Notes under the pieces: model-generated | Databases searched by the model: none | What the model was told of the DNA's origin: nothing | Seen by the model: only the letters and a program-made list of their open reading frames with translations | In this document: positions 4,181 to 57,034 of the stretch, in pieces | Layout: every line of letters starts with the position of its first letter | Position numbering within the stretch: position 1 is the first letter of the stretch | Assembly (NCBI GenBank): GCA_947589555.1 | Contig: CANQAZ010000001.1 | Location: forward strand, 1-62,120 | Source: an uncultured Clostridia bacterium | GTDB lineage: Bacteria > Bacillota > Clostridia > Christensenellales > Borkfalkiaceae | Length of the DNA stretch: 62,120 nucleotides | Direction of reading: 5' to 3' | Made by a program: the position numbers and the translations under genes

Positions 4181-4208
4181 TTTTGCATAGTATTATGCGT
4201 GACATAAT
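4181..4208 (+). repeat. Motif copy O1: TTTTGCATAGTATTATGCGTGACATAAT
   Basis: Starts 10 nt after the purB stop and lies upstream of the terminator at 4219. The 23-nt core is identical to O2. It contains the overlapping palindromes GCATA-GTAT-TATGC and ATTATG-N5-CATAAT. Confidence 0.9.
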
Positions 4209-4218
4209 GAGATAAATT

Positions 4219-4240
4219 GCGGCGATTTTGCCGCTTTTTT
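4219..4240 (+). terminator. Rho-independent terminator after purB
   Basis: GCGGC-GATTTT-GCCGC followed by TTTTTT. Confidence 0.75.
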
Positions 4241-4275
4241 CTCATATTGAAAGCCCCGTTGCGCAAACTTCGGAT

Positions 4276-4530
4276 ATGGAATACCGAAAAGTTTGCGTGG
4301 AAGTCGTGGCGCGGTTTTCGAGCGGGGGAGGGATGCGCCCGTTGGCGCTCAGGTGGATGGACGGCGCGACCTATTCCATCGACCGCGTGCGCTTTGCCGA
4401 GCGTGCGCCCGCGCGCGTCAGCGCCATTCTTCCCGTGCGCTACACTTGTCTTATCGGCGGAAAGGAAAAATATCTCTATTTCGAGCCCGAAAAAATGCAA
4501 TGGTTTGTGGAGGTCGCCTCTGGTGCCTGA
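4276..4530 (+). CDS. Hypothetical 84-aa protein translationally coupled to dinB
   Basis: ATG at 4276 (MEYRKVCVEVVARFSSGGGMRPLALRWMDGATYSIDRVRF...MQWFVEVASGA). Its TGA (4528-4530) overlaps the GTG start of dinB (4523). The track ORF 4228 uses a TTG inside the terminator, which is unlikely to be real. Confidence 0.55.
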   Translation: MEYRKVCVEVVARFSSGGGMRPLALRWMDGATYSIDRVRFAERAPARVSAILPVRYTCLIGGKEKYLYFEPEKMQWFVEVASGA

Positions 4531-13593: not shown

Positions 13594-14802
13594 ATGAAAG
13601 AGGTCGTCGTCATCGGCGGGGGCGCCTCGGGGCTCATGGCGGCTTATGCCGCGGCAGAGAGGGGCAACCGGGTCACGCTCGTCGAAAAAAACGAAAAACT
13701 CGGCAAAAAAATCTACATTACGGGCAAGGGGAGGTGCAACCTCACCAACGATTGCCCGCCCGAAGAGTTTTTGCAAAACGTCGTCCGCGGCGGCAAGTTT
13801 TTGACGGGCGCGATCTACGCCTTTCCGCCCGCCCGTACGATGGAATTCATGGAGGAGCACGGCCTCCCGCTCATAACGGAGCGCGGCAACCGCGTCTTTC
13901 CGCAGAGCGGCCATGCAAGCGACGTCACCAAAACGTTGGAGCGCGCCTGCAACCTCCTCGGCGTCCGCATTTTATTAAATACCGAAGTGCGGCGCATCGA
14001 AAAGGGGGATCGCTTCCGCGTCCGCACTTCGAACGGCGCGCTCTCCGCCGACGCCGTCATCGTGGCGACAGGCGGCCTCGCCTATCCCGCAACGGGCTCC
14101 ACGGGGGACGGCTACCGCTTTGCAAAGGAGGCGGGGCACACCTTGACGCCGTGCGTGCCTTCCCTCGTCGGGTTGGAACTGGAAGAGACCTTTGCGCAGG
14201 GGATCACCCTGAAAAACGTCGTTCTCACGGCAAAAAGGGGAGGAAAGATCCTCTCGTCCCGCCTCGGCGAGTTGCTTTTTACCCATTTCGGCATGTCCGG
14301 GCCCCTTGTTTTGACCCTTTCCGCCGAAATCAATCGCTTGCCGATGAAGGAGATCGCTCTTTCCGTCGATTTCAAGCCGGCGCTCGACGAACCAAAACTC
14401 GACGCCCGCCTCGTGCGCGATTTTTCGGAGCGCAAAAACGAACAACTCAAAAATATCATGCGCGGACTTCTCCCCGCATCCCTCGTCGGGCCCGTCCTGC
14501 ACGCCGCCGACCTACCGACGACAAAGCAGGGGAACGCCGTCACGCGGGAGGAGCGCGCCCGCCTCGTTTCGGCGCTCAAAAATTTCCCTTTGAGGCCCGT
14601 CAAACTGCGCGGCTTCGGGGAAGCGGTCATTACATCCGGCGGCGTCAGCCTTTCCGAGGTCTCTCCCAAAACGATGGAGAGCAAAAAAACGGAAGGTTTG
14701 TACTTTTGCGGCGAAGTGCTCGATGTTGACGCTTATACGGGGGGATTCAACCTTCAAATCGCGTTTGCAACGGGTTTTTGTGCGGGAAACAGCATAAATT
14801 AG
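13594..14802 (+). CDS. NAD(P)/FAD-dependent oxidoreductase, BaiN/HI0933-like flavoprotein
   Basis: MKEVVVIGGGASGLMAAYAAAERG...ITGKGRCNLTN...GGLAYPATGSTGDGY. Start is the ATG at 13594. Confidence 0.85.
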   Translation: MKEVVVIGGGASGLMAAYAAAERGNRVTLVEKNEKLGKKIYITGKGRCNLTNDCPPEEFLQNVVRGGKFLTGAIYAFPPARTMEFMEEHGLPLITERGNRVFPQSGHASDVTKTLERACNLLGVRILLNTEVRRIEKGDRFRVRTSNGALSADAVIVATGGLAYPATGSTGDGYRFAKEAGHTLTPCVPSLVGLELEETFAQGITLKNVVLTAKRGGKILSSRLGELLFTHFGMSGPLVLTLSAEINRLPMKEIALSVDFKPALDEPKLDARLVRDFSERKNEQLKNIMRGLLPASLVGPVLHAADLPTTKQGNAVTREERARLVSALKNFPLRPVKLRGFGEAVITSGGVSLSEVSPKTMESKKTEGLYFCGEVLDVDAYTGGFNLQIAFATGFCAGNSIN

Positions 14803-14805
14803 CGG

Positions 14806-14833
14806 TTTTACATAGTATTATGCGTGACATAAT
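14806..14833 (+). repeat. Motif copy O2: TTTTACATAGTATTATGCGTGACATAAT
   Basis: Starts 4 nt after the flavoprotein stop and ends 22 nt upstream of the -35 of the next operon. The 23-nt core is identical to O1. Confidence 0.9.
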
Positions 14834-14854
14834 AGGAAAAAACCGTCCGTCGGG

Positions 14855-14883
14855 TTGACTTTTTGAACCCGCGGCGGTATCAT
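14855..14883 (+). promoter_or_regulatory. Promoter TTGACT-N17-TATCAT of the aroH-cmk/plsC/ispH-S1 operon
   Basis: TTGACT at 14855-14860 and TATCAT at 14878-14883. GGAGG RBS before the ATG at 14910. Confidence 0.55.
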
Positions 14884-14909
14884 AAATCGGAAACATCACG
14901 GAGGAACAA

Positions 14910-15914
14910 ATGGTAGTCATACGCGGAGCGACCACGATCCCATGCGACAATAAGGAAGAGGTGCAAAAGGCCGTCTCGGAACTCATGGAGGCCATCGAAA
15001 ACCACAACAACATGAAAAGCAGTGAGGTTTTGAGCATCGTCTTTTCGAGTACGTCGGATATCCATTCCTATTATCCCGCAAAGGCGGCGCGGGAAGCGGG
15101 CTACGTCAGTTGTTCGCTCTTTTCGGCGGTAGAACCCGAGATCGTCGGCGGGCTTCCGCTCTGCATCCGCGTCATGCTGTTCACCGAAAAGGATCTTGTG
15201 CCCAAACACGTCTACCTGCGGGGGGCGCGCGTCCTACGGCGCGATCTCGGCAAATTCAACGTCGCCATCGACGGGCCCGCGGGGAGCGGCAAATCCACGG
15301 TGGCGCGGCGGCTTGCCGACGACTATCACATTCTCTACCTCGATACGGGCGCAATGTACCGCGCCGTCGCCTTGCAGGCCATCGAAGCGGGAGTAAACGT
15401 CGAGGATGAAGCGGCCATCGCCGACCTCATGCGTGACGTCAAACTCGACGTCCGTTACGAAAACGGCGTCCAGCGGACCCTCCTCGGCGAGCGGGACGTC
15501 TCCGAGGACATCCGCAAACCGCCCGTATCGATGGCGGCCTCTTCCGTTTCAAAGTATGCGAGCGTGCGCATGAAGTTGGTGGAAAAACAGCGCGAGATCG
15601 CCTCGCGCATGAGTTGCGTTTTGGACGGGCGGGACATCGGCACCTTTGTGTTGCCCGAGGCCGATTTCAAATTTTATCTTACGGCGAGCCCCGAGGTGCG
15701 CGCGCGGCGGCGCTACGACGAACTTGTGGCCAAAGGCCACACCGTCGACTTCGAAGCCCTGCGGGATGAGATCGTGAAGCGGGATGAGCAGGACATGAAC
15801 CGCAAGATCGCGCCCTTGAAACAGGCGGAGGACGCGGTGCTCGTCGATACTTCGGAAATGACCATCGAAGAAGTGGTCGCGGCCGTCAAAAAGCGCATGC
15901 AGGAGAAGATCTGA
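14910..15914 (+). CDS. cmk: Fusion protein: AroH-type chorismate mutase (N-terminal ~115 aa) + cytidylate kinase
   Basis: The N-terminus MVVIRGATTIPCDNKEEV...YPAKAARE...LPLCIRVMLF resembles B. subtilis AroH. From about residue 118, NVAIDGPAGSGKSTVARRLA...YLDTGAMYRA...DGRDIGT matches Cmk (P-loop). Confidence 0.85.
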   Translation: MVVIRGATTIPCDNKEEVQKAVSELMEAIENHNNMKSSEVLSIVFSSTSDIHSYYPAKAAREAGYVSCSLFSAVEPEIVGGLPLCIRVMLFTEKDLVPKHVYLRGARVLRRDLGKFNVAIDGPAGSGKSTVARRLADDYHILYLDTGAMYRAVALQAIEAGVNVEDEAAIADLMRDVKLDVRYENGVQRTLLGERDVSEDIRKPPVSMAASSVSKYASVRMKLVEKQREIASRMSCVLDGRDIGTFVLPEADFKFYLTASPEVRARRRYDELVAKGHTVDFEALRDEIVKRDEQDMNRKIAPLKQAEDAVLVDTSEMTIEEVVAAVKKRMQEKI

Positions 15915-32022: not shown

Positions 32023-33849
32023 ATGAGTTACTTTTACCATCCGCTGAAACGGGAGTGCAAAAGTTTGACCGGCGCGGTCCCGCGGGGCAGTGGGTTGACC
32101 TTTCATATTTTTCGGAGGGAAAGCGGAGAAGCGGACTTCTCCGCTCAACTTTGCAGTCTCGTGATTTTTGAGGACGGAAAGCACGAGACCGTTTTTCCGA
32201 TGAAAAAAACGGAGGACGGGTTTGCGATCACGCTGAAACTCCATCAAACCGGCCTCTATTTTTATTATTTTCGGCTCGACCGCGTCTGCCTCGGATGCGG
32301 AAAGGGACGGAAAGGGGAGTTGACGGAACAGCCCCAATGCTGGCAACTGACCGTCTATGACGAGGACTACGAAACGCCCGAATGGTTCAAGGGCGGCATC
32401 ATGTACCAAATTTTCCCCGACCGCTTTTTCCGCGCGGGGAACAATTCGGTAAAACCCTACCAGATCCTCCGCGGAGATTGGGGCGGACTCCCTTCGTTCC
32501 GCCCGAATGAGTTCGGAAAGGTGCTCAATAACGACTTTTTCGGCGGCGATTTGCAGGGTGTGCGCGAAAAACTCGACTATCTGAAAGCCCTGCACGTCAA
32601 CGCCATCTATTTCAATCCCGTGTTCGAGGCCTATTCCAACCACCGCTACGATACGGGCGATTACATGAAGATCGATCCGTTGCTCGGCACGAAGGAGGAT
32701 TTTTGCGCCCTCATCGGCGACGCAAAGGCGCGCGGCATCCGCGTGATCCTCGACGGCGTGTTCAACCACACGGGCGACGACAGCCGCTATTTCAACAAAT
32801 ACGGGCGGTACGACAGCGTGGGCGCCTACCAATCCGTGCAGTCGCCTTACAGCGAGTGGTATTGCTTCCGCCAATTCCCCGATACCTATGAAAGTTGGTG
32901 GGGAATCGAGACGTTGCCCGCGGTGAACGAATCCTCGGCCTCTTACCAGGATTTTATCTGCGGAGAAAACGGCGTCATCCAAACTTGGATCTCCTGCGGC
33001 GTGGGCGGCTACCGCCTCGACGTTGCGGACGAATTGCCCGATTTCTTCCTCGAAAAGGTGCGCCGCGCCGTGAAAGAGAGCGACGAGGACGCCTTGATCA
33101 TCGGCGAAGTGTGGGAGGACGCCTCCAATAAGGTCGCTTACGACGTGCGCAAGAAGTATTTGCAGGGGCGCGAACTCGACAGCGTGATGAACTATCCGCT
33201 GAAAAATGCCATCATCCGCTTTGTGCTCTCGGGCGATTGCGAAATGCTCCGCGAGACGGTCGCCATGCTCATCGACAATTATCCCAAACCGACCCTCGAC
33301 TGCCTCATGAACATTTTGGGAACGCACGACACGCCGCGCATTCTGACCGTCCTTGCGGGAAAATGGTGCGCGACGAAGGAAGAGATGGCGGCGACGAAAT
33401 TGAGCGGCGAGGAACGCGCGCGCGCCAAACAAAAGGTAAAAATGGCGGCGACCTTGCAGTTTACTTTGCCGGGCGTGCCTTGCATCTACTACGGCGACGA
33501 GATCGCGATGGAAGGTTTTCAGGATCCGTTCTGCCGCGGCTGTTACGATTGGGCGCATCCCGACGAGGAATTGCGCGCGTTTTACGAAAAACTCGCAACG
33601 ATCCGCACCGAGGTATTCGGCGACATTTTGCGGGACGGCGAATATCGGGAAATTTTTGCGGCGCAAGGCTGTATCGTTTATGAGCGCCGTAAAAACGGGC
33701 GGTCCATGTTGGTTTACGCCAACAATTCCGCCGCGGACCATATTTTACGGGGCGAGGGAAAGTGGAAGGAGCATTTGACGGGGCAAACCTTTGACGGCGG
33801 AATGACGATCCCGAAATATTCGTACGGAATTCTCTCGAAAATCGAATAG
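32023..33849 (+). CDS. GH13 alpha-amylase-family enzyme (neopullulanase / cyclomaltodextrinase / debranching-type)
   Basis: Conserved regions DGVFNHTG, GGYRLDVADEL, IIGEVWED and LGTHDTPR, plus an N-terminal accessory domain. It is the last gene of the glg operon. Confidence 0.85.
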   Translation: MSYFYHPLKRECKSLTGAVPRGSGLTFHIFRRESGEADFSAQLCSLVIFEDGKHETVFPMKKTEDGFAITLKLHQTGLYFYYFRLDRVCLGCGKGRKGELTEQPQCWQLTVYDEDYETPEWFKGGIMYQIFPDRFFRAGNNSVKPYQILRGDWGGLPSFRPNEFGKVLNNDFFGGDLQGVREKLDYLKALHVNAIYFNPVFEAYSNHRYDTGDYMKIDPLLGTKEDFCALIGDAKARGIRVILDGVFNHTGDDSRYFNKYGRYDSVGAYQSVQSPYSEWYCFRQFPDTYESWWGIETLPAVNESSASYQDFICGENGVIQTWISCGVGGYRLDVADELPDFFLEKVRRAVKESDEDALIIGEVWEDASNKVAYDVRKKYLQGRELDSVMNYPLKNAIIRFVLSGDCEMLRETVAMLIDNYPKPTLDCLMNILGTHDTPRILTVLAGKWCATKEEMAATKLSGEERARAKQKVKMAATLQFTLPGVPCIYYGDEIAMEGFQDPFCRGCYDWAHPDEELRAFYEKLATIRTEVFGDILRDGEYREIFAAQGCIVYERRKNGRSMLVYANNSAADHILRGEGKWKEHLTGQTFDGGMTIPKYSYGILSKIE

Positions 33850-33883
33850 TATGCGTGGCATAATATACTATGTGTGACATAAT
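33845..33883 (+). repeat. Motif copy O3 (tandem, two overlapping partial units): AATAGTATGCGTGGCATAAT-ATACTATGTGTGACATAAT
   Basis: Overlaps the TAG stop (33847-33849) of the GH13 gene and lies upstream of the terminator at 33904. Each unit matches the 3' 15 nt of O1 with one mismatch. Confidence 0.85.
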
Positions 33884-34306: not shown

Positions 34307-35368
34307 ATGAAACGCAATTCCAACTATTATCAGGAAAGAAATCTCGACAATCTGGACCGTATCGACAGGCTCCTCGAAGAACTCCCCTACTTCTGCGAGG
34401 ATTTTTTGCGCGGCGTGGAAACGCGTACGAGTACCCTCACTCGCCTCAATTATGTGTACGATTTGCGCATCTTTTTCGATTTCCTCGTCAAGAAACGCTT
34501 CCGCGGCAAACAGGTGCGCGAACTCACCCTTGAAGATATCGAGCAAGTGACCGATACCGACATCGAAATTTTCCTCTCCTATCTCTCCAATTATCAATTC
34601 GGCGACAAACGCCTCTCCTGCGACGAGCGCGCCAAAGCCCGCAAACTCTCCACTGTGCGCTCGATGTTCAAGTATTTCTTCAACAAAGGCCTCATCGAAG
34701 TCAACAATACCGCGAAAGTTTCTACGCCCAAACTCCACGATAAGGAGATCGTCCGCCTGGAAAGCGACGAGGTCTCCTCTCTGCTCGATACCGCTGAGGA
34801 AGGCAACGGCCTCTCCCCCCATGCGGCCGGCTATCACGACAAGACCAAAATACGCGATACCGCCATTTTGACCCTCTTTTTGGGCACGGGCATCCGTATT
34901 TCCGAACTCGTCGGTCTCAACGATGAAAGCATCGATTTTTCCACCAATTCCTTTGTCGTGACCCGCAAGGGCGGAAATCACGCTATTTTGTACTTTTCGG
35001 AGGAGGTCGGCGACGCCCTCGCCGCCTATCTCGCCCAAAAACAGGACGATCCCCGCGTGCCCGAGGACGAGCACGCCCTCTTTTTATCCCTCCAATATCG
35101 CCGTATTACCGTGCGCGCCGTCGAAAATCTCGTCAAAAAGTACGCGCGCATCGTCTCCCCTCTCAAAAAAATCACGCCGCATAAACTCCGCTCCACCTAC
35201 GGCACCGCCCTTTACCGCGAAACGGGCGACATCTACATCGTGGCCGACGTCTTGGGACACAGGGACGTGAATACGACGCGCAAACACTATGCCGCCATCA
35301 CAGAGGACCACCGCAAGGCCGTTGCGGACAAGGTAAAACTCCATAAACCGGGAGACGGCGGCGAATGA
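34307..35368 (+). CDS. Tyrosine recombinase (XerC/XerD-like, phage-integrase family)
   Basis: N-terminal SAM-like domain. The catalytic residues appear in GTGIRISELVGL (Arg), HKLRSTYGT (HxxR) and LGHRDVNTTRKHY (His...Tyr). ATGA overlap with hflX. Confidence 0.85.
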   Translation: MKRNSNYYQERNLDNLDRIDRLLEELPYFCEDFLRGVETRTSTLTRLNYVYDLRIFFDFLVKKRFRGKQVRELTLEDIEQVTDTDIEIFLSYLSNYQFGDKRLSCDERAKARKLSTVRSMFKYFFNKGLIEVNNTAKVSTPKLHDKEIVRLESDEVSSLLDTAEEGNGLSPHAAGYHDKTKIRDTAILTLFLGTGIRISELVGLNDESIDFSTNSFVVTRKGGNHAILYFSEEVGDALAAYLAQKQDDPRVPEDEHALFLSLQYRRITVRAVENLVKKYARIVSPLKKITPHKLRSTYGTALYRETGDIYIVADVLGHRDVNTTRKHYAAITEDHRKAVADKVKLHKPGDGGE

Positions 35369-36588
35369 ACGAAAAAAGCGAAAAGCGGGAGATCGTCTAC
35401 GTCATCCAGCCCGTCTACGGGCAGTCTGACCGCGCCGTTCACGACGAGGCCGTCTCCCTCATCGAAAGCGCGGGCGCAAGTTACGGCGGCACGATCTATC
35501 AAAACATCCGCGAAGTCAATCCCGCGACCTATGTGGGCGAGGGAAAACTGCGGGAATTGAAGGAGCGTCTCGACGGACTTGACGACGTGACCGTGCTCTT
35601 CAACGGGGAACTCTCCCCTTCCCAGACGCTGAACATCTCCGCCGCGTTGGACGGCAGAAAGGTCATCGACCGCACGACCCTCATCCTCGATATCTTTGCC
35701 CTGCGCGCCGCGAGCAGCGAAGGAAAGTTGCAGGTAGAACTCGCCCAACTCAACTATCTTTATCCCCGCCTCAAAGGCAAGGGCGGAGCCCTTTCCCGCC
35801 TCGGGGGCGGCATCGGGACGCGCGGCCCCGGAGAAAGCCAACTCGAAACGGACAGGCGGCACATCCGCGCGCGCATCCGCTCGCTCGAAAAGAAACTCGC
35901 CGAAACGGAAAAACGGCGCTCCTTACAGACGGAACGCCGCAAAAAAGAGCGGATCAAGACGGTCGCGCTCGTCGGATACACCAATACGGGCAAATCCACT
36001 CTGCTGAATGCCGTGACGGGCGCCGACGTTTTGACGAAGGACGCCCTCTTTGCGACCCTCGACCCCACCGCGCGTGCCTTTGAAATAGAGGGCGTGCCCT
36101 TTCTCATGGTGGATACCGTCGGATTTTTGCAGGCTCTGCCCCACCATCTCATCGAAGCATTCAAATCCACCCTCGAAAGCGCGTTGAATTGCGACCTCGC
36201 CCTTATCGTGTGCGATGCGGCGGGAGAATACGAGTTGCAACTCAAAACGACGCTGGATACCTTGCAGGAGATGGGCTTTACGGCGCCCTACCTCGTCGTC
36301 ATGAACAAGTGCGACGTCGCCCCGAACGGCCGCTTCCCCCGCGGCACCGTGTGCATTTCCGCCAAAACGGGCCGTGGTCTCGACGAACTGAAAAGGCGCA
36401 TTTTCGAGGCGTTCAGCGATAAATTTGTGCGGGCCGAACTCTTTGTCCCCTATGCGTGCATGGGAGAGTACGGCGCGCTCCGCTCCCGCCTCGTCGAACA
36501 GACGGTGGAATACACCGAAGGCGGCGCGAAGATCTCCGCCATCATCCCTGCGATCTATCGGGAAAATTTCCTTAAATTTATCAAATGA
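35365..36588 (+). CDS. hflX: GTPase HflX
   Basis: HflX N-terminal domain (GEGKLRELKERL, LDIFALRAASSEGKLQVELAQL) and G-domain (VGYTNTGKSTLLN, DTVGF, NKCD). Confidence 0.93.
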   Translation: MNEKSEKREIVYVIQPVYGQSDRAVHDEAVSLIESAGASYGGTIYQNIREVNPATYVGEGKLRELKERLDGLDDVTVLFNGELSPSQTLNISAALDGRKVIDRTTLILDIFALRAASSEGKLQVELAQLNYLYPRLKGKGGALSRLGGGIGTRGPGESQLETDRRHIRARIRSLEKKLAETEKRRSLQTERRKKERIKTVALVGYTNTGKSTLLNAVTGADVLTKDALFATLDPTARAFEIEGVPFLMVDTVGFLQALPHHLIEAFKSTLESALNCDLALIVCDAAGEYELQLKTTLDTLQEMGFTAPYLVVMNKCDVAPNGRFPRGTVCISAKTGRGLDELKRRIFEAFSDKFVRAELFVPYACMGEYGALRSRLVEQTVEYTEGGAKISAIIPAIYRENFLKFIK

Positions 36589-36926: not shown

Positions 36927-37535
36927 ATGTTGAAACAGGATAAACTCAACGCAGTGCTCGGCTACATCAACCGCTACATCGAGGAAAACGGCTTTCCGCC
37001 CACCGTGCGGGAGATCTGCGCCGAACTCGGCATCAAGTCCACCGCGACGGTGTACGACTACATCAACCGCTTGCGGGACATGGGATTTTTGGATAAGGCC
37101 GAAAAGAAGAAGCGCGCCGTCGCCGTAAAAGGGAACGGAAATTTGTTCCGCGCTCCCCTCCTCGGCACGGTCAATGCGGGCGCGCCCATTTTGGCTGTGG
37201 AGGATAACGAAGGCTTCTACCCCCTGCCCTCCGCAGAATTCCGCGGGGACGACCTCTTTTTGTTGCGCGTACACGGCGAAAGCATGATCGAAGCGGGCAT
37301 CTTTGACGGCGATAAGATCGTCGTAAAGAGGCAACCGAACGCCGAGAACGGCGAGATCGTCGTTGCGATGTTCGACGAGGGCTACGGCGAGGGCGCAACG
37401 GTCAAGCGCTTTTACAAGCGGGACGGGAAGGTGGTGTTGCACCCCGAAAATTCCGCGATGGCGGATATCGTTCCCGAAGATCCCGACGGCGTGACCATCT
37501 TGGGGAAGGTCATCGGGCTGATCCGCAGTATTTGA
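36927..37535 (+). CDS. lexA: LexA repressor
   Basis: The winged-helix N-terminus (GFPPTVREICAELGIKSTATVYDYI), the A-V-A-V-K-G region, and the S24 peptidase motifs GESMIEAGI and VKRF (Ser/Lys dyad). Confidence 0.95.
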   Translation: MLKQDKLNAVLGYINRYIEENGFPPTVREICAELGIKSTATVYDYINRLRDMGFLDKAEKKKRAVAVKGNGNLFRAPLLGTVNAGAPILAVEDNEGFYPLPSAEFRGDDLFLLRVHGESMIEAGIFDGDKIVVKRQPNAENGEIVVAMFDEGYGEGATVKRFYKRDGKVVLHPENSAMADIVPEDPDGVTILGKVIGLIRSI

Positions 37536-43261: not shown

Positions 43262-43267
43262 GCCTTG

Positions 43268-43297
43268 ATTATATCACTCTTTTTCCGTTTCGGTCAA
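43268..43297 (-). promoter_or_regulatory. Promoter TTGACC-N18-TATAAT placed 6 nt before the lysA ATG (leaderless-type)
   Basis: On the minus strand TTGACC is at 43297-43292 and TATAAT at 43273-43268, with the ATG top coordinate at 43261. No SD sequence. Confidence 0.6.
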
Positions 43298-43338
43298 GAA
43301 AAAAGGCATAATTACCGCAAAAAACGATAATTATGCCT
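43298..43338 (-). terminator. Strong rho-independent terminator after the dacF-like gene (11-bp perfect stem AGGCATAATTA/TAATTATGCCT)
   Basis: On the minus strand: AGGCATAATTA-N13-TAATTATGCCT followed by TTTTTT. The 5' arm overlaps motif copy O4. Confidence 0.85.
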
Positions 43339-43357
43339 GGCATAATACTATGCAAAA
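43330..43357 (-). repeat. Motif copy O4 (minus strand): TTTTGCATAGTATTATGCCAGGCATAAT
   Basis: Starts 5 nt after the dacF-like stop at 43362. It has 3 mismatches to the 23-nt O1 core, all within the N5 spacer of the ATTATG/CATAAT palindrome. Confidence 0.9.
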
Positions 43358-43361
43358 TACC

Positions 43362-44522
43362 TTAAAGCGCCCAATCGCGTGCCATTTCCCGATAGGCGTC
43401 CCACCAGCCGAAGCGCGCCGCATCTTCCAGTGCGATGAGCGGCGTCTCGTCGACCGCAACGCCTCGATAGAACAAAGTCGCCTTTCCTACGGCGTCCCCC
43501 ATCCGGACGGGAGCGCGCAGATCTTCCTCTACCGAAACATCGAGGGTGTAATCTTCCTCTTCTCCTCGCTTGCAAAAGCCCGCAAGCGCGTGTTCGGCGC
43601 CGATCGCAAGGTCCGACTGCTTTGCTCCGCGCACTGCGGCGCGCACGTCGAGCGGCTTCCCCTCTTCGAGGAAAATTTTTGAGGAATAGTCCGCAAATCC
43701 CTCGTCGAACATAGCGGCGACGGACGCGTTGCGCGTTTTTGCGCTCTCCGCGCCGATGACGACGGCGATAAGGCGGGTATTTTCGCGCTTGGCGGTCGCC
43801 GCGAGGCAGAATCCCGCTTCATTGGTGAAGCCCGTCTTTCCCCCGTCGCAACCCCGATAGTGGCGGATGAGTTTATTTGTGTTCGTCATACTCGTCGTTC
43901 TGCCGTCGGGATGGGCAAAATCTTCGAGCCAAACGCGGGAAAATTCATAATATTTTTCATGGTGCAAAAGAGCCCGCAACATGAGGGAAACGTCCTGCGC
44001 ACAGGAATACTGCGGGTCCTTCGGGAGCCCCGTGCAGTTGGCGAAGAGGGTGTTCTCCGCACCGAGTTGCTTTGCGCGCTCGTTCATGCGGGCGACGAAG
44101 GCCGCTTCACTGCCCGCGACCCGCTCGGCAAGCGCAACGCAGGAATCGTTTGCGGAGCATACGGCCACGCTCTTCATGAGTTGTTCGGCGGAATAGGAAA
44201 GGTTTGCGCCCAAAAATACCTGCGAGCCCCCCATCCCCGCGGCGTTTTCGCTCGCCGTAACTTGTTCTTCATAGGCAAGTTCCCCTCTGTCCACCGCTTC
44301 AAAGGTCAAAAGCAGGGTCATGATCTTGCACATGCTCGCAATGGGAAGATGGTCCGTTTCGTTTTTGGCGTAGACGACGGCGCCCGTTTCGTAGTCGCAA
44401 AGATAGGCCGCTTTGCCTTCGGGCTCCGCTGTGAGCGCGGAGGCATGCGTTGTGGGCGCGCCTCCGAATACAATGGCTCCCGCCGCAATGGCGGCAAGGG
44501 TAAATCCGATCATTTTTTTCAT
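43362..44522 (-). CDS. D-alanyl-D-alanine carboxypeptidase (S11 family, DacF/DacA-like)
   Basis: MKKMIGFTLAAIAAGAIVFG signal peptide, with SxxK (ASMCKIMT), SxN (SAND) and KTG (KTGFT). Start is the ATG at 44522; the longer track ORF is read-through. Confidence 0.88.
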   Translation of the reverse strand: MKKMIGFTLAAIAAGAIVFGGAPTTHASALTAEPEGKAAYLCDYETGAVVYAKNETDHLPIASMCKIMTLLLTFEAVDRGELAYEEQVTASENAAGMGGSQVFLGANLSYSAEQLMKSVAVCSANDSCVALAERVAGSEAAFVARMNERAKQLGAENTLFANCTGLPKDPQYSCAQDVSLMLRALLHHEKYYEFSRVWLEDFAHPDGRTTSMTNTNKLIRHYRGCDGGKTGFTNEAGFCLAATAKRENTRLIAVVIGAESAKTRNASVAAMFDEGFADYSSKIFLEEGKPLDVRAAVRGAKQSDLAIGAEHALAGFCKRGEEEDYTLDVSVEEDLRAPVRMGDAVGKATLFYRGVAVDETPLIALEDAARFGWWDAYREMARDWAL

Positions 44523-44557
44523 ATCCGCAGTTTGCGCAGTTTTTCGGAAAATACACA

Positions 44558-45157
44558 TCAGAAGATATTTCCGAGGGGATGGAAGAGGGCGAGCAAAAGG
44601 AGCATTTCCGCAAGCCCTATCGCGGCGAGCAAGGCGAGAAGGAGGAGAAAATCGGAGAGAAGAAAGAGCCAATCCTGTTTTCCGAAGCAAAAACGGGCAG
44701 CCCTTCCGTAAGACAGCGCGCCCGCGAAACACAAAACGGCGTCCACGGCGAGGTGGACGGGAAGATAGAGCCCTATTACGATGAGGGCTCCCGCAAAGCG
44801 ATACACCGAGAAAAAGATGTAGAGACTTCCGCCCAGCGTGTAGGCGCGGTAGACGAGGACGATGGGCGGAAAGATACAGCCTACGACGTGGACGCCCGAG
44901 AGCCCGATGACGGCAAGGAGTACGGCGTGGCCCGCGAGGCGTTCTATGTAGATCTCCAAAACACTGCGGTCGGAAAAGCAGACGCGGTTTACGAAGCGGT
45001 CGCAGACCGTGATGTGGTAATCGTACATCGCGGGCGTCGTGACGAATATCAGACCGAGCACCATCCCGGCAAGAAAGAGCACGGCGAACACGAGAAGCGT
45101 TTTTTTGCGCTCGAACGCGCGGCCGAAACATTCGCGGAAACGAAAAAAGATGTTCAT
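44558..45157 (-). CDS. Polytopic membrane protein, possibly stage II sporulation protein M-like
   Basis: MNIFFRFRECFGRAFERKKTLLVFAVLFLAGMVLGLIFV... has about 5 hydrophobic segments. Its size and N-terminal layout resemble SpoIIM. The start is uncertain (ATG at 45157 or 45175, TTG at 45211), and both ATGs lie inside the hairpin at 45147-45178. Confidence 0.45.
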   Translation of the reverse strand: MNIFFRFRECFGRAFERKKTLLVFAVLFLAGMVLGLIFVTTPAMYDYHITVCDRFVNRVCFSDRSVLEIYIERLAGHAVLLAVIGLSGVHVVGCIFPPIVLVYRAYTLGGSLYIFFSVYRFAGALIVIGLYLPVHLAVDAVLCFAGALSYGRAARFCFGKQDWLFLLSDFLLLLALLAAIGLAEMLLLLALFHPLGNIF

Positions 45158-45178
45158 ATACAATGATATGAACATCTT
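45143..45178 (-). terminator. 13-bp perfect hairpin plus T-run after spoIVB
   Basis: On the minus strand: AAGATGTTCATAT-CATTGT-ATATGAACATCTT followed by TTTT. Confidence 0.7.
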
Positions 45179-45200
45179 CGCCCGAATATCCCCTTTTTCG

Positions 45201-46214
45201 TCAATTTCCAAGCATATTTTCGATGCCGATACCGTAGCCGCGCGTCGGATCGTTGATAAAGACGTGGGTGACTGCGCCGATGAGTTTTCCGTTCTGGACG
45301 ATGGGACTGCCGCTCATCCCCTGCACGATGCCGCCCGTTTCCTCGATGAGGCGGGGGTCTGTCACTTTTACGACAAAATTTTTGTTCTCGCCGTTATGGA
45401 CGTCCACTTTGGCGATGGCGATTTCGTACTTTTTCGGAGTCACGCCGTCCACCGTGGAGTAGATATAGGCCGTTCCGATGGTCGCCTCCGTGAGGGGCGC
45501 CGCCCCGACGACTTCGCAATCCGAAAAATCATAGGCCGCATCAAAGGTGCCGTACAGCCCCGTATCGCAGACCGTCTCCGCGGAGGCGATCGTCTTATCG
45601 TTCAAAAAGAGTCCGCGCAATTCCCCCGCGCGCCCGCGCTTGCCCTTATTTACGCCGATGACACTGCAAAGATAGACGTTTTGATCGGCAATATCGAGCG
45701 TGCTCTTATTCTCGTCGCAGACGGCATGCCCGAGCGCGCCGAACCTGAGGTCCCCTTTGCGGATGTACGTTACGGTGCCGATGCCGGAGAGAGTATCGCG
45801 GATGAGCACGCCGAGTTTATACTTTCCGCTCTTTTCGTCCATGACGGGCGTTACGCTCACTTCCGCCGTGTCGCCGTTCCGCCTGACAAGAAGAACGACG
45901 CTCTTCCCGCCGCACACTTCGAGCGCCGCTCCCAAATCGGAAATTTTTTTGATCCGCATGCCGTTGACGGCACAGATCGTATCCCCGATCTTCAATCCCG
46001 CTTCCTCGGCCGGTTTGCGGCGGCCCTCCTTGCCGGCGATCTCGGTGAATCCCACGATCTCCGTACCGCCCGCCGAGAGCGAAAAGCCGGCCGTCATCCC
46101 GCCCAAATAATATTCTTCCGTTGCGGCGCCCGCTTCAAATTGCCCCGCGCCGCAGAACACGGCGCACAGGGCGGCAACGAGCACGGCCGCAAATAAAAAT
46201 TTCAGCCTACGCAT
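45201..46214 (-). CDS. spoIVB: SpoIVB peptidase (S55)
   Basis: Signal anchor, a PDZ region (AGLKIGDTICAVNG), and the catalytic region GTVTYI...GALGH...GMSGSPIVQNGKLIGAVTHVF. Confidence 0.92.
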   Translation of the reverse strand: MRRLKFLFAAVLVAALCAVFCGAGQFEAGAATEEYYLGGMTAGFSLSAGGTEIVGFTEIAGKEGRRKPAEEAGLKIGDTICAVNGMRIKKISDLGAALEVCGGKSVVLLVRRNGDTAEVSVTPVMDEKSGKYKLGVLIRDTLSGIGTVTYIRKGDLRFGALGHAVCDENKSTLDIADQNVYLCSVIGVNKGKRGRAGELRGLFLNDKTIASAETVCDTGLYGTFDAAYDFSDCEVVGAAPLTEATIGTAYIYSTVDGVTPKKYEIAIAKVDVHNGENKNFVVKVTDPRLIEETGGIVQGMSGSPIVQNGKLIGAVTHVFINDPTRGYGIGIENMLGN

Positions 46215-50071: not shown

Positions 50072-51770
50072 AGAGCCCACCGATAAGCGCGAAAAGCGCC
50101 TCTTCGCTCACGCCGAAGCGCTTGGCGAGCGATTTGGGCTGTCCGTGCGGGATGAATTCGTCGCGGTAGCCGAGCGAATAGACCTCTTTCCCGCTGTTGC
50201 GGTAAAACCGCGCGACGGCGTCCCCCAGTCCACCGATGAGGGCATTGTCCTCCACCGTGATGACGTACTTTTGCGGAAGTCCGCCAAGAAGCGCCTCGTC
50301 GAGCGGTTTCAAAAAACGGGCGTTGACGATGCCGACGTCCTTCCCGCTCCCGCGCAGTGCAGTGCGCACTCTTTCGGCGATGCAGATGCAACGCTCCCCC
50401 GCCGCAATGATCATTATGTCAGACGTAGTACTATGTAAAATTTCCATTTTTCCGATTTCAAGGGGCGAAATCGGGCCATCCAACCCTGCGCGGGGGTATC
50501 GGATGGCGAGCGGGCCGTCAAACGAGGCCCCTGCGCGGAGAATGGCGCGGAATTCCCCCACATTCTTCGGAATGGCAACGGTGAGGTTCGGGATAAAGGA
50601 AAGATAGGAAAGATCGAATATGCCCTGGTGCGTTTGGCCGTCCGGGCCCGCGATGCCCGCCCGGTCCACGCAAAACGTAACGGGCAAATTCTGCGCGCAG
50701 ACGTCGTGGATGATTTCATCGAAGGCGCGCTGTAAAAAAGTGGAATAAATGGCGTAGTACGGGCGCATGCCCTGCGTCGCCATTCCCGCGCAGAGTACGG
50801 AAGCGTGCTCCTCGCAGATGCCGACGTCGAAGGCGCGGCGCGGGAAGCGGCGGAAAAACTCGCGCAGACCCAAACTGTCCGTCATCGCCGCAGTGACGGC
50901 GACGATGCGCGGGTCGCGCTCCGCAAGGGCGCACAATTCCTCGCCGAGGGCCGCGGAATACTCGCGCTCCCCCTCTCCCGACTTGGGGCCCACGCCGTGC
51001 GTTGCCTCTGGCTCGCTCTCGCAGAAGGGATAGCCCTGCCCCTTTTTCGTGACGACGTGCAATAACACGCAAGAATCGCGGAGCGCCTTTTTGGCCTCTT
51101 CGAGCGCGGGAAGGAGTTCGGAAAGGTCATTTCCGTTGTAAACGCCCATGTATTTGAGCCCGTATTGCTCAAAAAGGGCGATATTTTCGGGACGCATGCC
51201 CGTTTTGAGTTCGCTCAGCACGTCGTGCGTGCCGCCGACGGTGGGAGAAATAGACAGGCCGTTGTCGTTCACGACGATGAGGATGCGCGTGTTCAGAATG
51301 TGCAGACTGTTGAGCGCCTCGAAAATAAGCCCGTTGTTGAACGAACCGTCGCCGATGAGCGCGATGACTTCGAAGGTTTCGCCCTTCAAATCGCGCGCCG
51401 CGGCAATGCCGAGCGCCGCGGAGACCGAAGTGCCCGCGTGGCCCGTATCATAGCAATCGTAATCGCTCTCCTCCCGCTTAGGAAAGCCCGAGAGCCCCCC
51501 CTCCTGCCGCAAGGTGCGGAATCGGTCGGCCCGCCCCGAAAGCAATTTGTGGGTGTAGCACTGATGGCCCACGTCGAAAACGATCTTGTCGCGGGGAAAA
51601 TCGAAAACTTTGTGAAGCGCAACCGTCAATTCCACCGTACCGAGATTGGACGAAAGATGCCCGCCGCAGACGGAAACGGTATCGAATATTTCCGTGCGGA
51701 GTTCCTCGCAGATGTGATTCAGTTGGGGTACGGAGGCCGATTTGAGTTCGGCGTCGGAAATGTTTCTCAT
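50058..51770 (-). CDS. dxs: 1-deoxy-D-xylulose-5-phosphate synthase
   Basis: MRNISDAELKS...GGHLSSNLGTVELTVALH...DVGHQCYTHKLLSGR...GDGSFNNG (TPP motif). Start is the ATG at 51770. Confidence 0.95.
   Translation of the reverse strand: MRNISDAELKSASVPQLNHICEELRTEIFDTVSVCGGHLSSNLGTVELTVALHKVFDFPRDKIVFDVGHQCYTHKLLSGRADRFRTLRQEGGLSGFPKREESDYDCYDTGHAGTSVSAALGIAAARDLKGETFEVIALIGDGSFNNGLIFEALNSLHILNTRILIVVNDNGLSISPTVGGTHDVLSELKTGMRPENIALFEQYGLKYMGVYNGNDLSELLPALEEAKKALRDSCVLLHVVTKKGQGYPFCESEPEATHGVGPKSGEGEREYSAALGEELCALAERDPRIVAVTAAMTDSLGLREFFRRFPRRAFDVGICEEHASVLCAGMATQGMRPYYAIYSTFLQRAFDEIIHDVCAQNLPVTFCVDRAGIAGPDGQTHQGIFDLSYLSFIPNLTVAIPKNVGEFRAILRAGASFDGPLAIRYPRAGLDGPISPLEIGKMEILHSTTSDIMIIAAGERCICIAERVRTALRGSGKDVGIVNARFLKPLDEALLGGLPQKYVITVEDNALIGGLGDAVARFYRNSGKEVYSLGYRDEFIPHGQPKSLAKRFGVSEEALFALIGGLYARG
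50413..50440 (-). repeat. Motif copy O5 (minus strand, inside dxs): TTTTACATAGTACTACGTCTGACATAAT
   Basis: 4 mismatches to the 23-nt O1 core. It encodes ILHSTTSDIM of Dxs. Confidence 0.8.
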
Positions 51771-54464: not shown

Positions 54465-54950
54465 TCAACTTTCCGCATAAACCGGCATAATTACGACGTC
54501 GCCGTTGCTGATTTGGTACTCATATTCGAGCGCGTAGAAAATTCTGGTGAGATCGTCCTCGTTGAGTTCGCTCGCGTTGACGAATACGTTGATATGGTCA
54601 TTCTCGGTCAGGGTAACCGCCGCATCCGAAAAACCGAGCCCCTTGATGATGGATTCCATCACGAGTTCGTCCTCCATGAGTTGGACGAGTTCCATCTTTC
54701 TCGCATAGGCCGCGGCGTACTCGTCGGAGCCCTCCACACTGCTCGCGATGATGGCGTCGAGTTCCACAAACTCCTCGCTCCGCGTGCTGTTGCGGATATC
54801 GCGGTAGGACGTGAAGTAGTTGACGGGGGTAGCCGTGGCGCCGTCGACCGTCTGCGTCTTTGTGCCGGCAAGGATGAAGTTGAAGATGGCCGTGACGGCA
54901 AGCAGAAGAACGAGGGTAGACATGAGTGCGATTTTCTTGGTGTTTGACAT
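54465..54950 (-). CDS. spoIIIAH: Stage III sporulation protein AH
   Basis: N-terminal TM segment. The C-terminal region (IKGLGFSDAAVTLTENDHINVFVNASEL) is typical of SpoIIIAH, and the gene occupies the last position of the spoIIIA operon. Confidence 0.8.
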   Translation of the reverse strand: MSNTKKIALMSTLVLLLAVTAIFNFILAGTKTQTVDGATATPVNYFTSYRDIRNSTRSEEFVELDAIIASSVEGSDEYAAAYARKMELVQLMEDELVMESIIKGLGFSDAAVTLTENDHINVFVNASELNEDDLTRIFYALEYEYQISNGDVVIMPVYAES

Positions 54951-54978
54951 GGTTTTATCTCCTTCTCATTAAATTTTC

Positions 54979-55344
54979 TCAATTATCGGCGGGATAGACG
55001 AGGACGTTCCGCCGTTCGATTTGGAGCGCATTCGCCGTGGCGTCGATGACGCGGGAGCGGGTGACGAGCCCGAGATCCCCTCTGACGATGACGACCGCGC
55101 TCTTTGCCGCACCGTCCTCTTCCCCGATCATGACCGTCGCGCTCTCCACCCCTTCGATCTCCCCGAGAAGGCGGGCGAGCCGCTCTTCGGTCGCCGTCGG
55201 CTCGTAGGCGGTCGCGGCGTCGTCGCTCTTTTGCGGAAAAAACACCTTCCACACGGCAAGGAGCAACAAAAAGGCGAGCAAACACACGGAAACGACCCGA
55301 AAAACTCTGTTTTGAAACAGTTTTTTGATGCGCTCCGTGTTCAT
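54979..55344 (-). CDS. spoIIIAG: Stage III sporulation protein AG (short form, 121 aa)
   Basis: N-terminal TM segment. LGEIEGVESATVMIGEEDGAAKSAVVIVRGD...VIDATANALQIERRNVLV resembles the C-terminal ring-building motif region of SpoIIIAG. Its operon position fits. Confidence 0.7.
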   Translation of the reverse strand: MNTERIKKLFQNRVFRVVSVCLLAFLLLLAVWKVFFPQKSDDAATAYEPTATEERLARLLGEIEGVESATVMIGEEDGAAKSAVVIVRGDLGLVTRSRVIDATANALQIERRNVLVYPADN

Positions 55345-55805
55345 GACACCTCCACGTTGCCTCCGTATTTTCCGCTGAGGTATGCTTGGACGCGGTCTGT
55401 AATATCTTTATGCTCGCCTTGTCCCGATATGCCGAAATCGGAAATTTTTACGGAAATTTTTTCTCTCGCGAAGGTGGCGTCGGGCGCGCGGACCACCTCC
55501 ACCGCCGCGGCGACCCCGAATTCTTCCATGAGAGCCGTTGCGATCTCCTCTTCGTCGGCCCGCTCCATCAGTTCCGCGCATTGCATGAAATAGGCGGGAT
55601 CTTCCTTTATTTCCCCGCCGTTCCCCCCTTCTACCGAAATTTTTCCGCCCCGGAAAAAACTCACAAAGGGCGCGACGAGCACGACGAGGAGAAAGAGTTT
55701 CATCGCGCCCTTCACGAATTTGCCCATCTTTCCGCCCGGCGCTATCATGGTGACGACGGCGGAAATCAGTACGGCGCCCACAATGCTCAATATATAGGTC
55801 TGCAT
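55341..55805 (-). CDS. spoIIIAF: Stage III sporulation protein AF
   Basis: MQTYILSIVGAVLISAVVTMIAPGGKMGKFVKGAMKLFLLVVLVAPFV has two TM segments followed by a soluble domain. Its position between AE and AG fits. Start is the ATG at 55805. Confidence 0.7.
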   Translation of the reverse strand: MQTYILSIVGAVLISAVVTMIAPGGKMGKFVKGAMKLFLLVVLVAPFVSFFRGGKISVEGGNGGEIKEDPAYFMQCAELMERADEEEIATALMEEFGVAAAVEVVRAPDATFAREKISVKISDFGISGQGEHKDITDRVQAYLSGKYGGNVEVS

Positions 55806-57034
55806 CAGAAGAAAACCCCCGTGGAACAGATGAGAAGGAGCAACGTCAGAAAATAGAGAAAAGCGATGCACAAAATTCCCGCCAAAAAATAGCCGCTGTC
55901 CTTTGCAAGGCGGGATAAAAACCCCGGGATCTTCCCCCCGACGGGCTCGGTGGCCGCCGCGGAGAGCCGCAAAAAGAGTTGAAAGGCCGCCATCAGGAGC
56001 ACGGGCCGCAGGACGGCGGCAAAGAGAAGAAAGACGGCGAAGGAGCCGAGCGCATTTTTGATGAGCGCGCTCCCTGCGACGACAAGTTCCACCCCGCCAG
56101 ACAAAAATCCGCCCACGAGAGGTACCGATCCCGAAATTACATACTTTGCGGCGCGGAGCGAAAGCCCGTCGTACTGCGCCGAAGCGATCCCTTGCACGGT
56201 GAGAAAAAGACTCATGAGGGCAAGCGTCAGGCCGATGAGCCATTTGCCGACGCTCTTGAAGAGTTCGCCGAGCCGCTCCGTGCGCACATCGTCGGTCAGA
56301 TTTCCGACAAATGCGAGCAATATGACGACGACGGCCGACGGCAGAACGACGGAAGTAAAAAGGCGGGTGACCGTACTGCTGAAAAAGGCGACCGCAGGGC
56401 GGAATACTCCCGCGGAGACCGCCCCGCCGCTCGCCGCCATGAGGGTCATCAAAATCGGATAAACTATTTCCATCTGCCGTTGCATGGCGTCCATCGCCCG
56501 AAATCCGCTCTCCAAAACTCCGATGAGACATGCAAGCACCGTCGCCCCCACCGAAATATAGCCGACAAAGTGGATTATGTCTGACATAGTACTATCTATA
56601 AAGCCACTTTTCGCAGAGTTTAGGATCCCGCAGAGCAAAGCGACGGCCAAAATGATGGCAAATGCCGGGATCATCGCCTTTCCGTCCTCCCAAACGAGGG
56701 CAAGAACGGCTTCGGTCAGAGAGCCGTATTCGAGCGAGGCGTCTCCCGTGATCAATTTTTTCAATTGGTCTTTGACGCTCGTCCCGCGGAATTCGGAAAG
56801 GGAATTGAGATAGTTTTGCAGTTCCTCCGTATCGAGCCCCTGCAATAATTCGTCGATGTTGTTTTCGAGTTCCTTCATCGCGCCGTTTTCTTCCGCAAGC
56901 GGAGCGGTCGGTACGGCATTCGCGCACAACAGCAAAACGAGCGCAAATAGTCCCGCAAGAAGGCAGATTGCCCTCTTTATTTTGTTTTTTCGGGGCACAA
57001 TGGGCCTGCGCCCGTAGACGAGTCGCGCGTTCAT
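55805..57034 (-). CDS. spoIIIAE: Stage III sporulation protein AE
   Basis: Signal/TM segment followed by a polytopic membrane protein (LMTLMAASGGAVSAGVFRPAV...). ATGA overlap with spoIIIAD. Start is the ATG at 57034. Confidence 0.85.
   Translation of the reverse strand: MNARLVYGRRPIVPRKNKIKRAICLLAGLFALVLLLCANAVPTAPLAEENGAMKELENNIDELLQGLDTEELQNYLNSLSEFRGTSVKDQLKKLITGDASLEYGSLTEAVLALVWEDGKAMIPAFAIILAVALLCGILNSAKSGFIDSTMSDIIHFVGYISVGATVLACLIGVLESGFRAMDAMQRQMEIVYPILMTLMAASGGAVSAGVFRPAVAFFSSTVTRLFTSVVLPSAVVVILLAFVGNLTDDVRTERLGELFKSVGKWLIGLTLALMSLFLTVQGIASAQYDGLSLRAAKYVISGSVPLVGGFLSGGVELVVAGSALIKNALGSFAVFLLFAAVLRPVLLMAAFQLFLRLSAAATEPVGGKIPGFLSRLAKDSGYFLAGILCIAFLYFLTLLLLICSTGVFF
56574..56601 (-). 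repeat. Motif copy O6 (minus strand, inside spoIIIAE): TTATAGATAGTACTATGTCAGACATAAT
   Basis: 5 mismatches to the 23-nt O1 core. It encodes FIDSTMSDII of SpoIIIAE and contains the palindrome ATAGTACTAT. Confidence 0.75.

Follow-up and report, generated by a model that had tools for sequence, protein, structure and literature searches.

An oriented AT-rich composite palindrome at gene ends and within genes of uncultured gut Clostridia as the possible core of an architectural protein-binding site

To our knowledge, sequence-specific sites that organise the chromosome have been described for just a few proteins, each of them from a model bacterium that is in culture. Such proteins and their sites, namely Noc and NBS, SlmA and SBS, MatP and matS, RacA and ram, RefZ and RBM, and ParB and parS, form sets of tens of long, specific, dyad-symmetric and dispersed sites. 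Many of these are located inside coding sequences, their positions are conserved across related species and their role is architectural; Noc and RacA also connect the DNA to the membrane or to the cell pole. The subject of this work is an AT-rich composite palindrome of about 28 nt that occurs six times in a 62,120-nt stretch of DNA (the window) from an uncultured Clostridia bacterium of the Borkfalkiaceae (assembly GCA_947589555.1, contig CANQAZ010000001.1, positions 1 to 62,120). This element is undescribed; it is nearest in kind to the sites of nucleoid-organising proteins and, in its placement, to the repetitive extragenic palindromic (REP) sequences and bacterial interspersed mosaic elements (BIME). 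The nucleoid-organising sites, however, are simple palindromes without the polarity, the association with gene ends and the 150-bp phased A/T envelope that characterise the element.

REP/BIME and the RIB/RIP elements of enterobacteria bind architectural or topological proteins, e.g., gyrase and IHF, and resemble the element in being found between cistrons or after transcription units but not in divergent promoter regions, in forming clusters and in being at times part of a terminator. REPs, however, are GC-rich hairpins that are exclusively extragenic, vary in sequence and position between species and are mobilised by the RAYT (REP-associated tyrosine) transposase, whereas the element is AT-rich, is found also in frame within genes and keeps its sequence and position across many species. 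REP/BIME are extragenic, inserted and species-specific in position; the element occupies the reading frames of dxs, spoIIIAE, miaA and baiN. The RTP-Ter system of Bacillus subtilis is likewise composite and polar with two overlapping dimer sites; it differs from the element in comprising no more than about nine Ter sites, all of them near the terminus, in sequence and in the lack of phased flanks, and RTP itself is, as far as we know, limited to Bacillus. The PadR proteins known so far are small and soluble and act as repressors at promoters, whereas nearly all sites of the element lie outside promoters. In terms of architecture, the closest analogue is the DNA gyrase motif, along with the strong gyrase site (SGS) of phage Mu, in which a footprint of 130-160 bp combines a centre with two flanks of 10-11 bp G/C-A/T periodicity and the activity is downstream of transcription units; the gyrase motif is degenerate, however, whereas the 22-28 bp core of the element is invariant and deviates from the gyrase preferences, and the lattice of the element is centred on a dyad of odd length. 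In Escherichia coli, the gyrase motif extends over 130 bp and consists of a centre of ~36 bp and two flanks with a 10.75-bp period that reaches +/-63-66; gyrase acts downstream of transcription, and BIME-2 elements are intergenic (PMC6379681). A periodicity of 10-11 bp has likewise been found for the gyrases of several species (PMC12324340).

The features that set the element apart are its polarity, the in-frame coding copies, the phased envelope and a candidate membrane-anchored partner of the PadR type, i.e., a winged helix combined with an integral membrane anchor as opposed to a protein of the ParB, TetR or MerR type. Judged from sequence comparison, the motif may represent the core of an oriented, dispersed binding site of ~150 bp for an architectural DNA-binding protein in a clade of uncultured gut Clostridia, a reading that is about as likely as not to be right.

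The six copies in the window are listed below (genes at all six copies confirmed by Pfam).

4181..4208, plus strand: O1, with core TTTTGCATAGTATTATGCGTGACATAAT, after purB and before a dinB-like gene
14806..14833, plus strand: O2, after a gene for an HI0933/BaiN-like flavoprotein and before an aroH-cmk fusion gene
33845..33883, plus strand: O3, tandem dyad units of 17 nt each after a GH13 amylase gene
33848-33864, plus strand: first unit of O3, AGTATGCGTGGCATAAT
33867-33883, plus strand: second unit of O3, ACTATGTGTGACATAAT
43330..43357, minus strand: O4, with core TTTTGCATAGTATTATGCCAGGCATAAT, after a PBP5/DacF-like gene and before the lysA promoter
50413..50440, minus strand: O5, inside dxs, encoding the in-frame peptide ILHSTTSDIM
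56574..56601, minus strand: O6, inside spoIIIAE, encoding the in-frame peptide IDSTMSDII

An earlier note on this DNA had reported these six copies, each co-oriented with the local genes. Scanning the whole window with the 28-mer and allowing up to 10 mismatches retrieved these six loci and no others, at the same positions, and the co-orientation was found for all six. The 23-nt core CATAGTATTATGCGTGACATAAT is identical at 4186-4208 (O1) and 14811-14833 (O2); as in the earlier count, it differs from this sequence at three positions in O4 (43330-43352, minus strand; computed), at four in O5 and at five in O6 (both counted by eye). Three matches to the core with at most three mismatches were observed, compared to none expected from 100 dinucleotide-preserving shuffles of the window, in agreement with the claim that the copies exceed chance. 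The pattern given for the motif in the title of the note has to be corrected: taken literally, it matches nothing because the spacer after TAYG is N3 rather than N4.

The intergenic copies are closely apposed to the ends of the preceding genes. O1 starts 9 nt past the stop codon of purB and ends 10 nt short of a terminator hairpin, and O2 starts 3 nt past the stop codon of the BaiN-like gene and ends 76 nt before aroH-cmk, with no clear terminator following it. The GH13 gene ends with a TAG codon at 33847-33849, just ahead of the first O3 unit, and a terminator at 33903-33947 comes after O3. The right half of O4, GGCATAAT, is itself the 5' arm of the terminator stem (43338-43304). The suggestion that the copies precede terminator hairpins thus applies to O1, O3 and O4, is unclear for O2 and does not amount to a general rule in the related genomes, where, among 79 intergenic copies, a terminator-like hairpin was found upstream of the motif in 22 cases, downstream in 18, on both sides in 4 and on neither side in 35. 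In addition to O4, the right half of the motif builds terminator stems in L039, L059 and L060.

The anatomy of the core was derived from a logo of 115 clostridial copies, with coordinate 0 assigned to the first A of ATAGTA. The core consists of three half-sites of the CATAGT/CATAAT type, with the extended form CATAGTAC, which is seen in symmetric variants (e.g., L062 and L069). A spacerless palindrome, CATAGT.ACTATG, overlaps a 6-5-6 dyad, AYTATG-N5-CATAAT; the former is a perfect 12-bp palindrome if Y is C. Variation is found at the spacer positions 11-13 but not in the half-sites; positions -6 to -1 read TTTTGC, and positions -15 to -13 are strictly A/T, with C in none and G in at most 4 of the 115 copies. 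The outer arms of the motif are direct and not inverted repeats. In a recurrent variant, the third base of one half-site is G and not T, that is, GCAGAGTAC for GCATAGTAC or CAGAAT for CATAAT; in SpoIIIAE, this variant results in Q replacing H, N or D ahead of STMSDII. The copies with this substitution include the following.

L012:574-601: G-variant copy
L023:2371-2398: G-variant copy
L037:2114-2141: G-variant copy
L130:3893-3920: G-variant copy

Invariant half-sites combined with a free spacer are as expected for dimers of a protein of the helix-turn-helix type. These features, together with the helically phased A/T flanks described below, support two proposals of the earlier note, namely that the motif is a site for a DNA-binding protein and that its overlapping dimer-type sites make it polar.

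Outside the window, an exact scan with ATAGTAYTAYGNNNGRCATAAT that covered one genome per species, with the related genomes read as 8-kb loci, identified at least 119 loci in species-representative genomes, all but a handful of which come from uncultured gut Clostridia. The source genomes among the matches listed include metagenome-assembled genomes (MAGs) from rabbit, chicken and ruminants, Candidatus Gallimonas and a 'Borkfalkiaceae' MAG. The same pattern has only three matches in 2.9 million viral contigs, which rules out a phage link. The window contains six sites in 62 kb and the loci elsewhere contain ~0.15 further sites per 8-kb locus; the overall density is low, about one site per 10-50 kb. 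Arrays of three to six dyad units in both orientations within ~130 bp are found in L058 (5593-5730) as well as in L010, L042, L086 and L113; in several species, such arrays share one intergenic region, between a gene for a fabG-like short-chain dehydrogenase and a gene for a dGTPase-like HD-domain protein.

All six window sites have counterparts in orthologous regions of relatives whose flanking proteins are only 55-85% identical, a point that the earlier note had proposed to check. The O1 ortholog follows purB in L021, that of O4 is found in L060, and those of O5 and O6 lie inside dxs (L008, L012, L076 and L089) and inside spoIIIAE (L012, L022, L076, L080, L081, L089 and L110), respectively. 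The double unit of O3 follows the GH13 gene also in L038 and L103, and single sites follow this gene in L039 and L062. Sites orthologous to O2 come after the baiN stop codon in L032, L078 and L083, and eight further species have theirs within baiN, about one third along the gene; in this case, conservation is at the level of the neighbourhood and not of one exact position. The recurrent in-gene positions, expressed as a fraction of the gene, are 0.33-0.39 in spoIIIAE, 0.78-0.80 in dxs, 0.81-0.88 in miaA and 0.30-0.38 in the baiN-like genes. The reading frame is always xAT AGT ACT ATG nnn GAC ATA ATx, the other two frames containing TAG or TAA. Nearly all of the best 120 SpoIIIAE homologues (66-80% identity) carry (S/T)TM(S/T)DII. 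The HSTTSDIM peptide of Dxs maps to a variable loop of the solved structures, with a gap of at most one residue and no 9-residue insertion, and the in-gene copies accordingly arose in place rather than by insertion. The flanks of the element continue into the neighbouring coding sequence.

The context of 135 instances was tabulated using genes predicted with our own codon-model caller seeded on amino-acid composition.

Inside a gene, same strand: 42 of 135
Inside a gene, opposite strand: 3 of 135
Between tandem genes, same direction: 42 of 135
Between tandem genes, opposite direction: 4 of 135
In convergent intergenic regions: 28 of 135
In divergent intergenic regions: 2 of 135

Sites are found at gene ends, between cistrons and inside genes, and almost never in promoter regions. 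The upstream gene mostly ends with a stop codon at -10 to +20 nt relative to the 28-mer, in some cases the TAG of the motif itself. About 95% of the sites point in the direction of the gene that they adjoin or lie in; orthologous copies cannot be counted as independent, and by gene families, the in-gene copies are co-oriented in about 8-9 and reversed in 2. Some of the 'opposite' cases are artefacts of orienting a near-palindrome (e.g., L046), and L023, L117, L045, L097, L085 and L033 are genuine exceptions. In the window, the genes turn from mostly plus to mostly minus near 37 kb and the motif orientation turns with them; AT skew flips at ~36.6-37.6 kb, but no clear signal of replication emerges from the weak GC skew. 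In the few cases in which the gene at the motif runs against most genes of its 8-kb locus, the motif sides with that gene about 5 times and with the majority about 3-4 times. An argC-like semialdehyde dehydrogenase gene carries the motif at about the same residue in two species (L045:3146-3173 and L129:263-279); the copy in L045 is clearly reversed relative to the gene and represents a rare conserved exception to co-orientation.

The flanks of the core contain A/T peaks at -66, -55, -45, -35, -23, -14 and -4 and at +29, +40, +51, +61 and +72, with a best period of 10.3 bp on the left and 10.7 bp on the right. The phased signal rises over background from about -75 to +85, that is, for ~75-85 bp on each side and ~150-160 bp overall, and is present in both classes of copies, the 82 intergenic and the 39 in-gene ones. 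The lattice has mirror symmetry about the midpoint of the 6-5-6 dyad, at position 13-13.5 (r = 0.70-0.77), and none about that of the 12-bp palindrome, at 4.5 (r = -0.19). The flanks of five of the six window copies fit the profile built exclusively from other genomes: O1 (envelope ~4112-4272, z = 4.2), O2 (~14737-14897, z = 3.1), O4 (~43266-43426, z = 3.1), O5 (~50349-50509, z = 2.9) and O6 (~56510-56670, z = 2.4). A/T tracts repeated every 10.3-10.7 bp place narrow minor grooves on one face of the helix, and such dyad-symmetric phasing, which persists even across coding sequence, is a signature, at the level of the DNA, of bending or wrapping around a protein.

The best candidate for this protein comes from two of the exceptions to co-orientation. 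In L085 and L033, the reversed motif directly precedes the -35 box of the canonical promoter of a gene for a protein of 790 residues.

L085:4032-6404, plus strand: PadR-like gene, with homologues in L033 and L123-L130

The N-terminus of this protein is a PadR winged-helix domain (Pfam E = 5e-19), which is followed by ~380 residues of a Glu/Arg/Ala-rich helical repeat, a proline-rich linker and, at the C-terminus, four hydrophobic helices that we read as membrane helices; no Pfam domain was found in the C-terminal part. The homologues, ~650-790 residues in length, form a tight family that is confined to uncultured gut Clostridia, and their genes very often stop short at the end of a contig or are interrupted by frameshifts, probably as a result of assemblies failing at the repeat. 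The upstream regions of ten of these genes were inspected, including those of eight further homologues beyond L033 and L085. At eight of the ten (L033, L085, L123, L124, L125, L126, L129 and L130), a clear reversed site that reads ATTATG-N5-CATAGTAC or nearly so precedes TTGACA-N17-TATAAT by 0-35 nt. The site is weak in L128, and in L127, which encodes the most divergent of these proteins (62% identity), the only sites are degenerate ones of the CAGAAT type on the downstream side of the promoter. Most of the sites at these genes are in divergent intergenic regions, a class otherwise nearly free of sites, and no promoter region other than that of the PadR-like gene carries the motif with any consistency. 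PadR proteins bind as dimers to ATGT/ACAT inverted repeats, and cdPadR1 of Clostridioides difficile binds the promoter of its own gene, consistent with autoregulation (PMC5050560). The same arrangement, an inverted repeat near the promoter of the regulator itself, was found here in the eight species with a clear site, and the commonest class of the motif contains ATGTCWGACAT, i.e., ATGT-N3-ACAT. The 8-bp extended half-sites GTACTATG and CATAATAN, as read from the sequence, have their centres 13 bp apart. On these circumstantial grounds, the membrane-anchored PadR-like protein is a candidate binder of the element and the sole pointer to a partner.

Among the alternatives, the polarity of the element could reflect the machinery of replication or DNA translocation, as in a Ter-like fork barrier or in orienting sequences akin to FtsK-orienting polar sequences (KOPS) or SpoIIIE recognition sequences (SRS), the orientation then following replication and the co-orientation with genes being secondary. 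The two overlapping dimer sites are reminiscent of the A/B layout of Bacillus RTP-Ter, the copies in the window are on the plus strand to the left and on the minus strand to the right of the gene-orientation switch at ~37 kb, and L023 contains a perfect copy between two fumarase genes that is opposed to both of them and runs along all other genes of the locus. This explanation is nevertheless unlikely, considering that the adjacent or host gene is co-oriented in ~95% of cases compared to only 76-88% for the other genes of the same 8-kb loci, that the sites, found beside many scattered housekeeping genes, exceed in number and spread what a terminus trap would call for, that the window has no dif-like site and an uninformative GC skew, and that the known orienting sequences are 8-mers without wrapped flanks. 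Quite unlikely, too, is a hard-wired strong gyrase site that would remove positive supercoils downstream of transcription units, by analogy with BIME-2/REP and phage Mu. The placement after genes fits, and so does the flank period of 10.3-10.7 bp from about -75 to +85, given that gyrase sites are expected to have flanks of ~47 bp on either side with a periodicity of 10-11 bp (PMC6379681). The conserved cleavage preferences of gyrase, however, are -4G/+8C, -2A/+6T and +1G/+4C (PMC12324340). If the GTAC of CATAGTACTATG is taken as the stagger, C/G is found at -4/+8 and T/A at -2/+6, so that by eye +1G/+4C alone agrees; furthermore, the lattice is centred on a 17-bp dyad of odd length, whereas a 4-bp staggered cut requires an even-centred palindrome, and gyrase sites elsewhere are degenerate and not invariant over 22-28 bp.

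The earlier note had also offered an RNA element and a regulon operator as possible roles, and neither is borne out. A transcribed element in the 3' untranslated region (UTR) or between cistrons, acting in processing, stability or protein binding, would account for the co-orientation with genes, the proximity to stop codons, the location of O1, O3 and O4 ahead of terminators and the use of the right half of the motif in some terminator stems. Such a role is very unlikely in view of the position relative to terminator-like hairpins (22 of the 79 intergenic copies after and 18 before), the C.A mismatch that the dyad pair 6-20 forms in 92 of 115 copies (80%) without any covariation, the inconsistent folds of the six window copies (shuffle z-scores of -1.6 to +2.0) and the absence of an RNA rationale for a dyad-symmetric 10.5-bp phasing over ~160 bp. 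At the Rfam gathering score, the window contains only a tRNA-Trp, and in eight related loci the motifs gave no match; stretches with few genes that adjoin some of the sites likewise showed no known RNA family where the sites lie. A promoter or a classical operator of a regulon controlling the downstream genes was considered with regard to the many copies that precede a ribosome-binding site and start codon by 10-40 nt, to the resemblance of CATAAT to a -10 box and to that of the phased upstream A tracts to an UP element. The sites avoid promoter regions, however, and an operator is judged unlikely for this reason: only two sites are in divergent regions as against 28 in convergent ones, where the downstream gene points the wrong way, and many copies are inside genes or immediately followed by a terminator. 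The best -35-like hexamers are 14-16 bp from CATAAT, whereas sigma-70 requires 16-18, and the true promoters in these genomes have the canonical form TTGACA-N17-TATAAT; the downstream genes (folA-like, thrS-like, aroH-cmk, lysA, dinB and others) share no common theme. Compared by eye with the consensus sequences, no spacing fits a promoter of sigma-70, of the sporulation sigma factors (E, F, G and K) or of sigma-54. A promoter or operator role therefore has a very low probability, and the same holds for a selfish or drive-propagated repeat, be it a transposase-spread element similar to REP or to a miniature inverted-repeat transposable element (MITE), or a DNA-uptake-type sequence accumulated by biased uptake. 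Like REP/BIME, the element lies within or after transcription units and not between divergent promoters, and its copies are clustered; like the uptake sequences of Haemophilus, it combines a core with phased A/T tracts and occupies tolerated frames. The copies within coding sequences, however, are not insertions, the flanks of the element are part of neighbouring genes, and the sites are orthologous between species whose flanking proteins are only 55-85% identical; the density is low compared to about one uptake sequence per kb, and the orientation bias is strong, unlike that of uptake sequences. No Y1 (RAYT) transposase was noticed in the loci examined, where no systematic transposase search was made. 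More generally, the observation of the earlier note that the motif is unlike any described element stands, with no match in Rfam or to the dif consensus and with only irrelevant hits in a full-text literature search for the motif strings.

Several points weigh against the architectural binding site and its proposed link to the PadR-like protein. The instances were collected with an asymmetric pattern, and part of the asymmetry is built in, although the six window copies, found independently of the scan pattern, share the same asymmetry. The gene caller made errors: it missed the PBP5 gene at O4 and extended some genes to the motif's own ATG. The phased A/T tracts could reflect intrinsic curvature and not wrapping. 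With regard to the PadR-like protein, the linker between ATGT and ACAT in the canonical PadR operator is 8-10 nt (PMC5050560). The motif lacks the corresponding ATGT-N8(10)-ACAT, its linker being 3 nt, and would fit only if the 8-bp extended half-sites are the recognised units. The apparent link comes from one conserved gene neighbourhood, and the site at the PadR-like gene could be one more inherited site rather than a sign of autoregulation because other genes also keep sites at conserved positions. The window itself contains no gene for a PadR-like protein.

Under the architectural reading, a multimeric protein would bind the core and bend or wrap the flanks, and the binder would be the clade-specific PadR winged-helix protein with its helical spacer and membrane helices. 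The bound complexes could tether or pin loci, possibly to the membrane via the long helical spacer, and the pins might set transcription units apart from one another as architectural or topological boundaries. With its asymmetric core, each complex could have a permissive side that faces oncoming transcription and co-directional replication. It is conceivable, if on balance doubtful, that the clade marks the ends of its transcription units in this way every 10-50 kb with oriented, wrapped elements of 150 bp, using tolerant spots within long operons where intergenic DNA is lacking, and that these elements, together with a PadR-type protein anchored in the membrane by a long rigid spacer, make up a dedicated, genetically encoded set of chromosome-membrane tethers or topological insulators whose polarity relative to transcription and replication is fixed.

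Several genes near the sites deserve mention in their own right. A gene for a Xer-like tyrosine recombinase (34298-35368, plus strand) starts 415 nt downstream of O3 and is followed by genes for an HflX-type GTPase (35365-36588) and lexA (36927-37535); the Xer-like gene has counterparts of 79-85% identity in L038, L062 and L103, again located after the GH13 gene and the motif. No dif-like site was found near this gene or elsewhere in the window, and the motif itself was rejected as a dif/Xer site, which would be a single-copy sequence of 28 bp at the terminus with two inverted 11-bp arms about a 6-bp centre: it has no match to the dif consensus with up to three mismatches, is multicopy and has direct, not inverted, arms. 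Downstream of O2, a single open reading frame (ORF; 14910-15914, plus strand) fuses a type I chorismate mutase (AroH) to cytidylate kinase, a fusion that is conserved in eleven related loci at 53-74% identity. The 589-codon ORF at O4 (43362-45131, minus strand) contains PBP5/DacF-like domains from residue 236 and overlaps, in another frame, a 217-codon ORF (44558-45211, minus strand) that has a good coding score and no Pfam match; the overlap means either that the PBP gene starts further downstream or that a frameshift is present. In L082 (276-4328, plus strand), and also in L124 and L127, the large subunit of carbamoyl-phosphate synthase is apparently fused to a diaminopimelate epimerase domain in a protein of ~1350 residues.

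Altogether, the element is unusual in its very high information content and in a conservation across species that extends even to coding sequence, where the codons are dictated by the element, as well as in its nucleosome-like or gyrase-like phased envelope and its strict rules of placement and orientation relative to genes. The codon use of dxs, spoIIIAE, miaA and baiN is thus partly set by a constraint at the DNA level, and the motif is a sharp genomic marker for this uncultured clade. If the PadR-like protein is the partner, it would represent a new way to pin DNA and would make it possible to test directly how bacteria set the limits of their topological or spatial domains.

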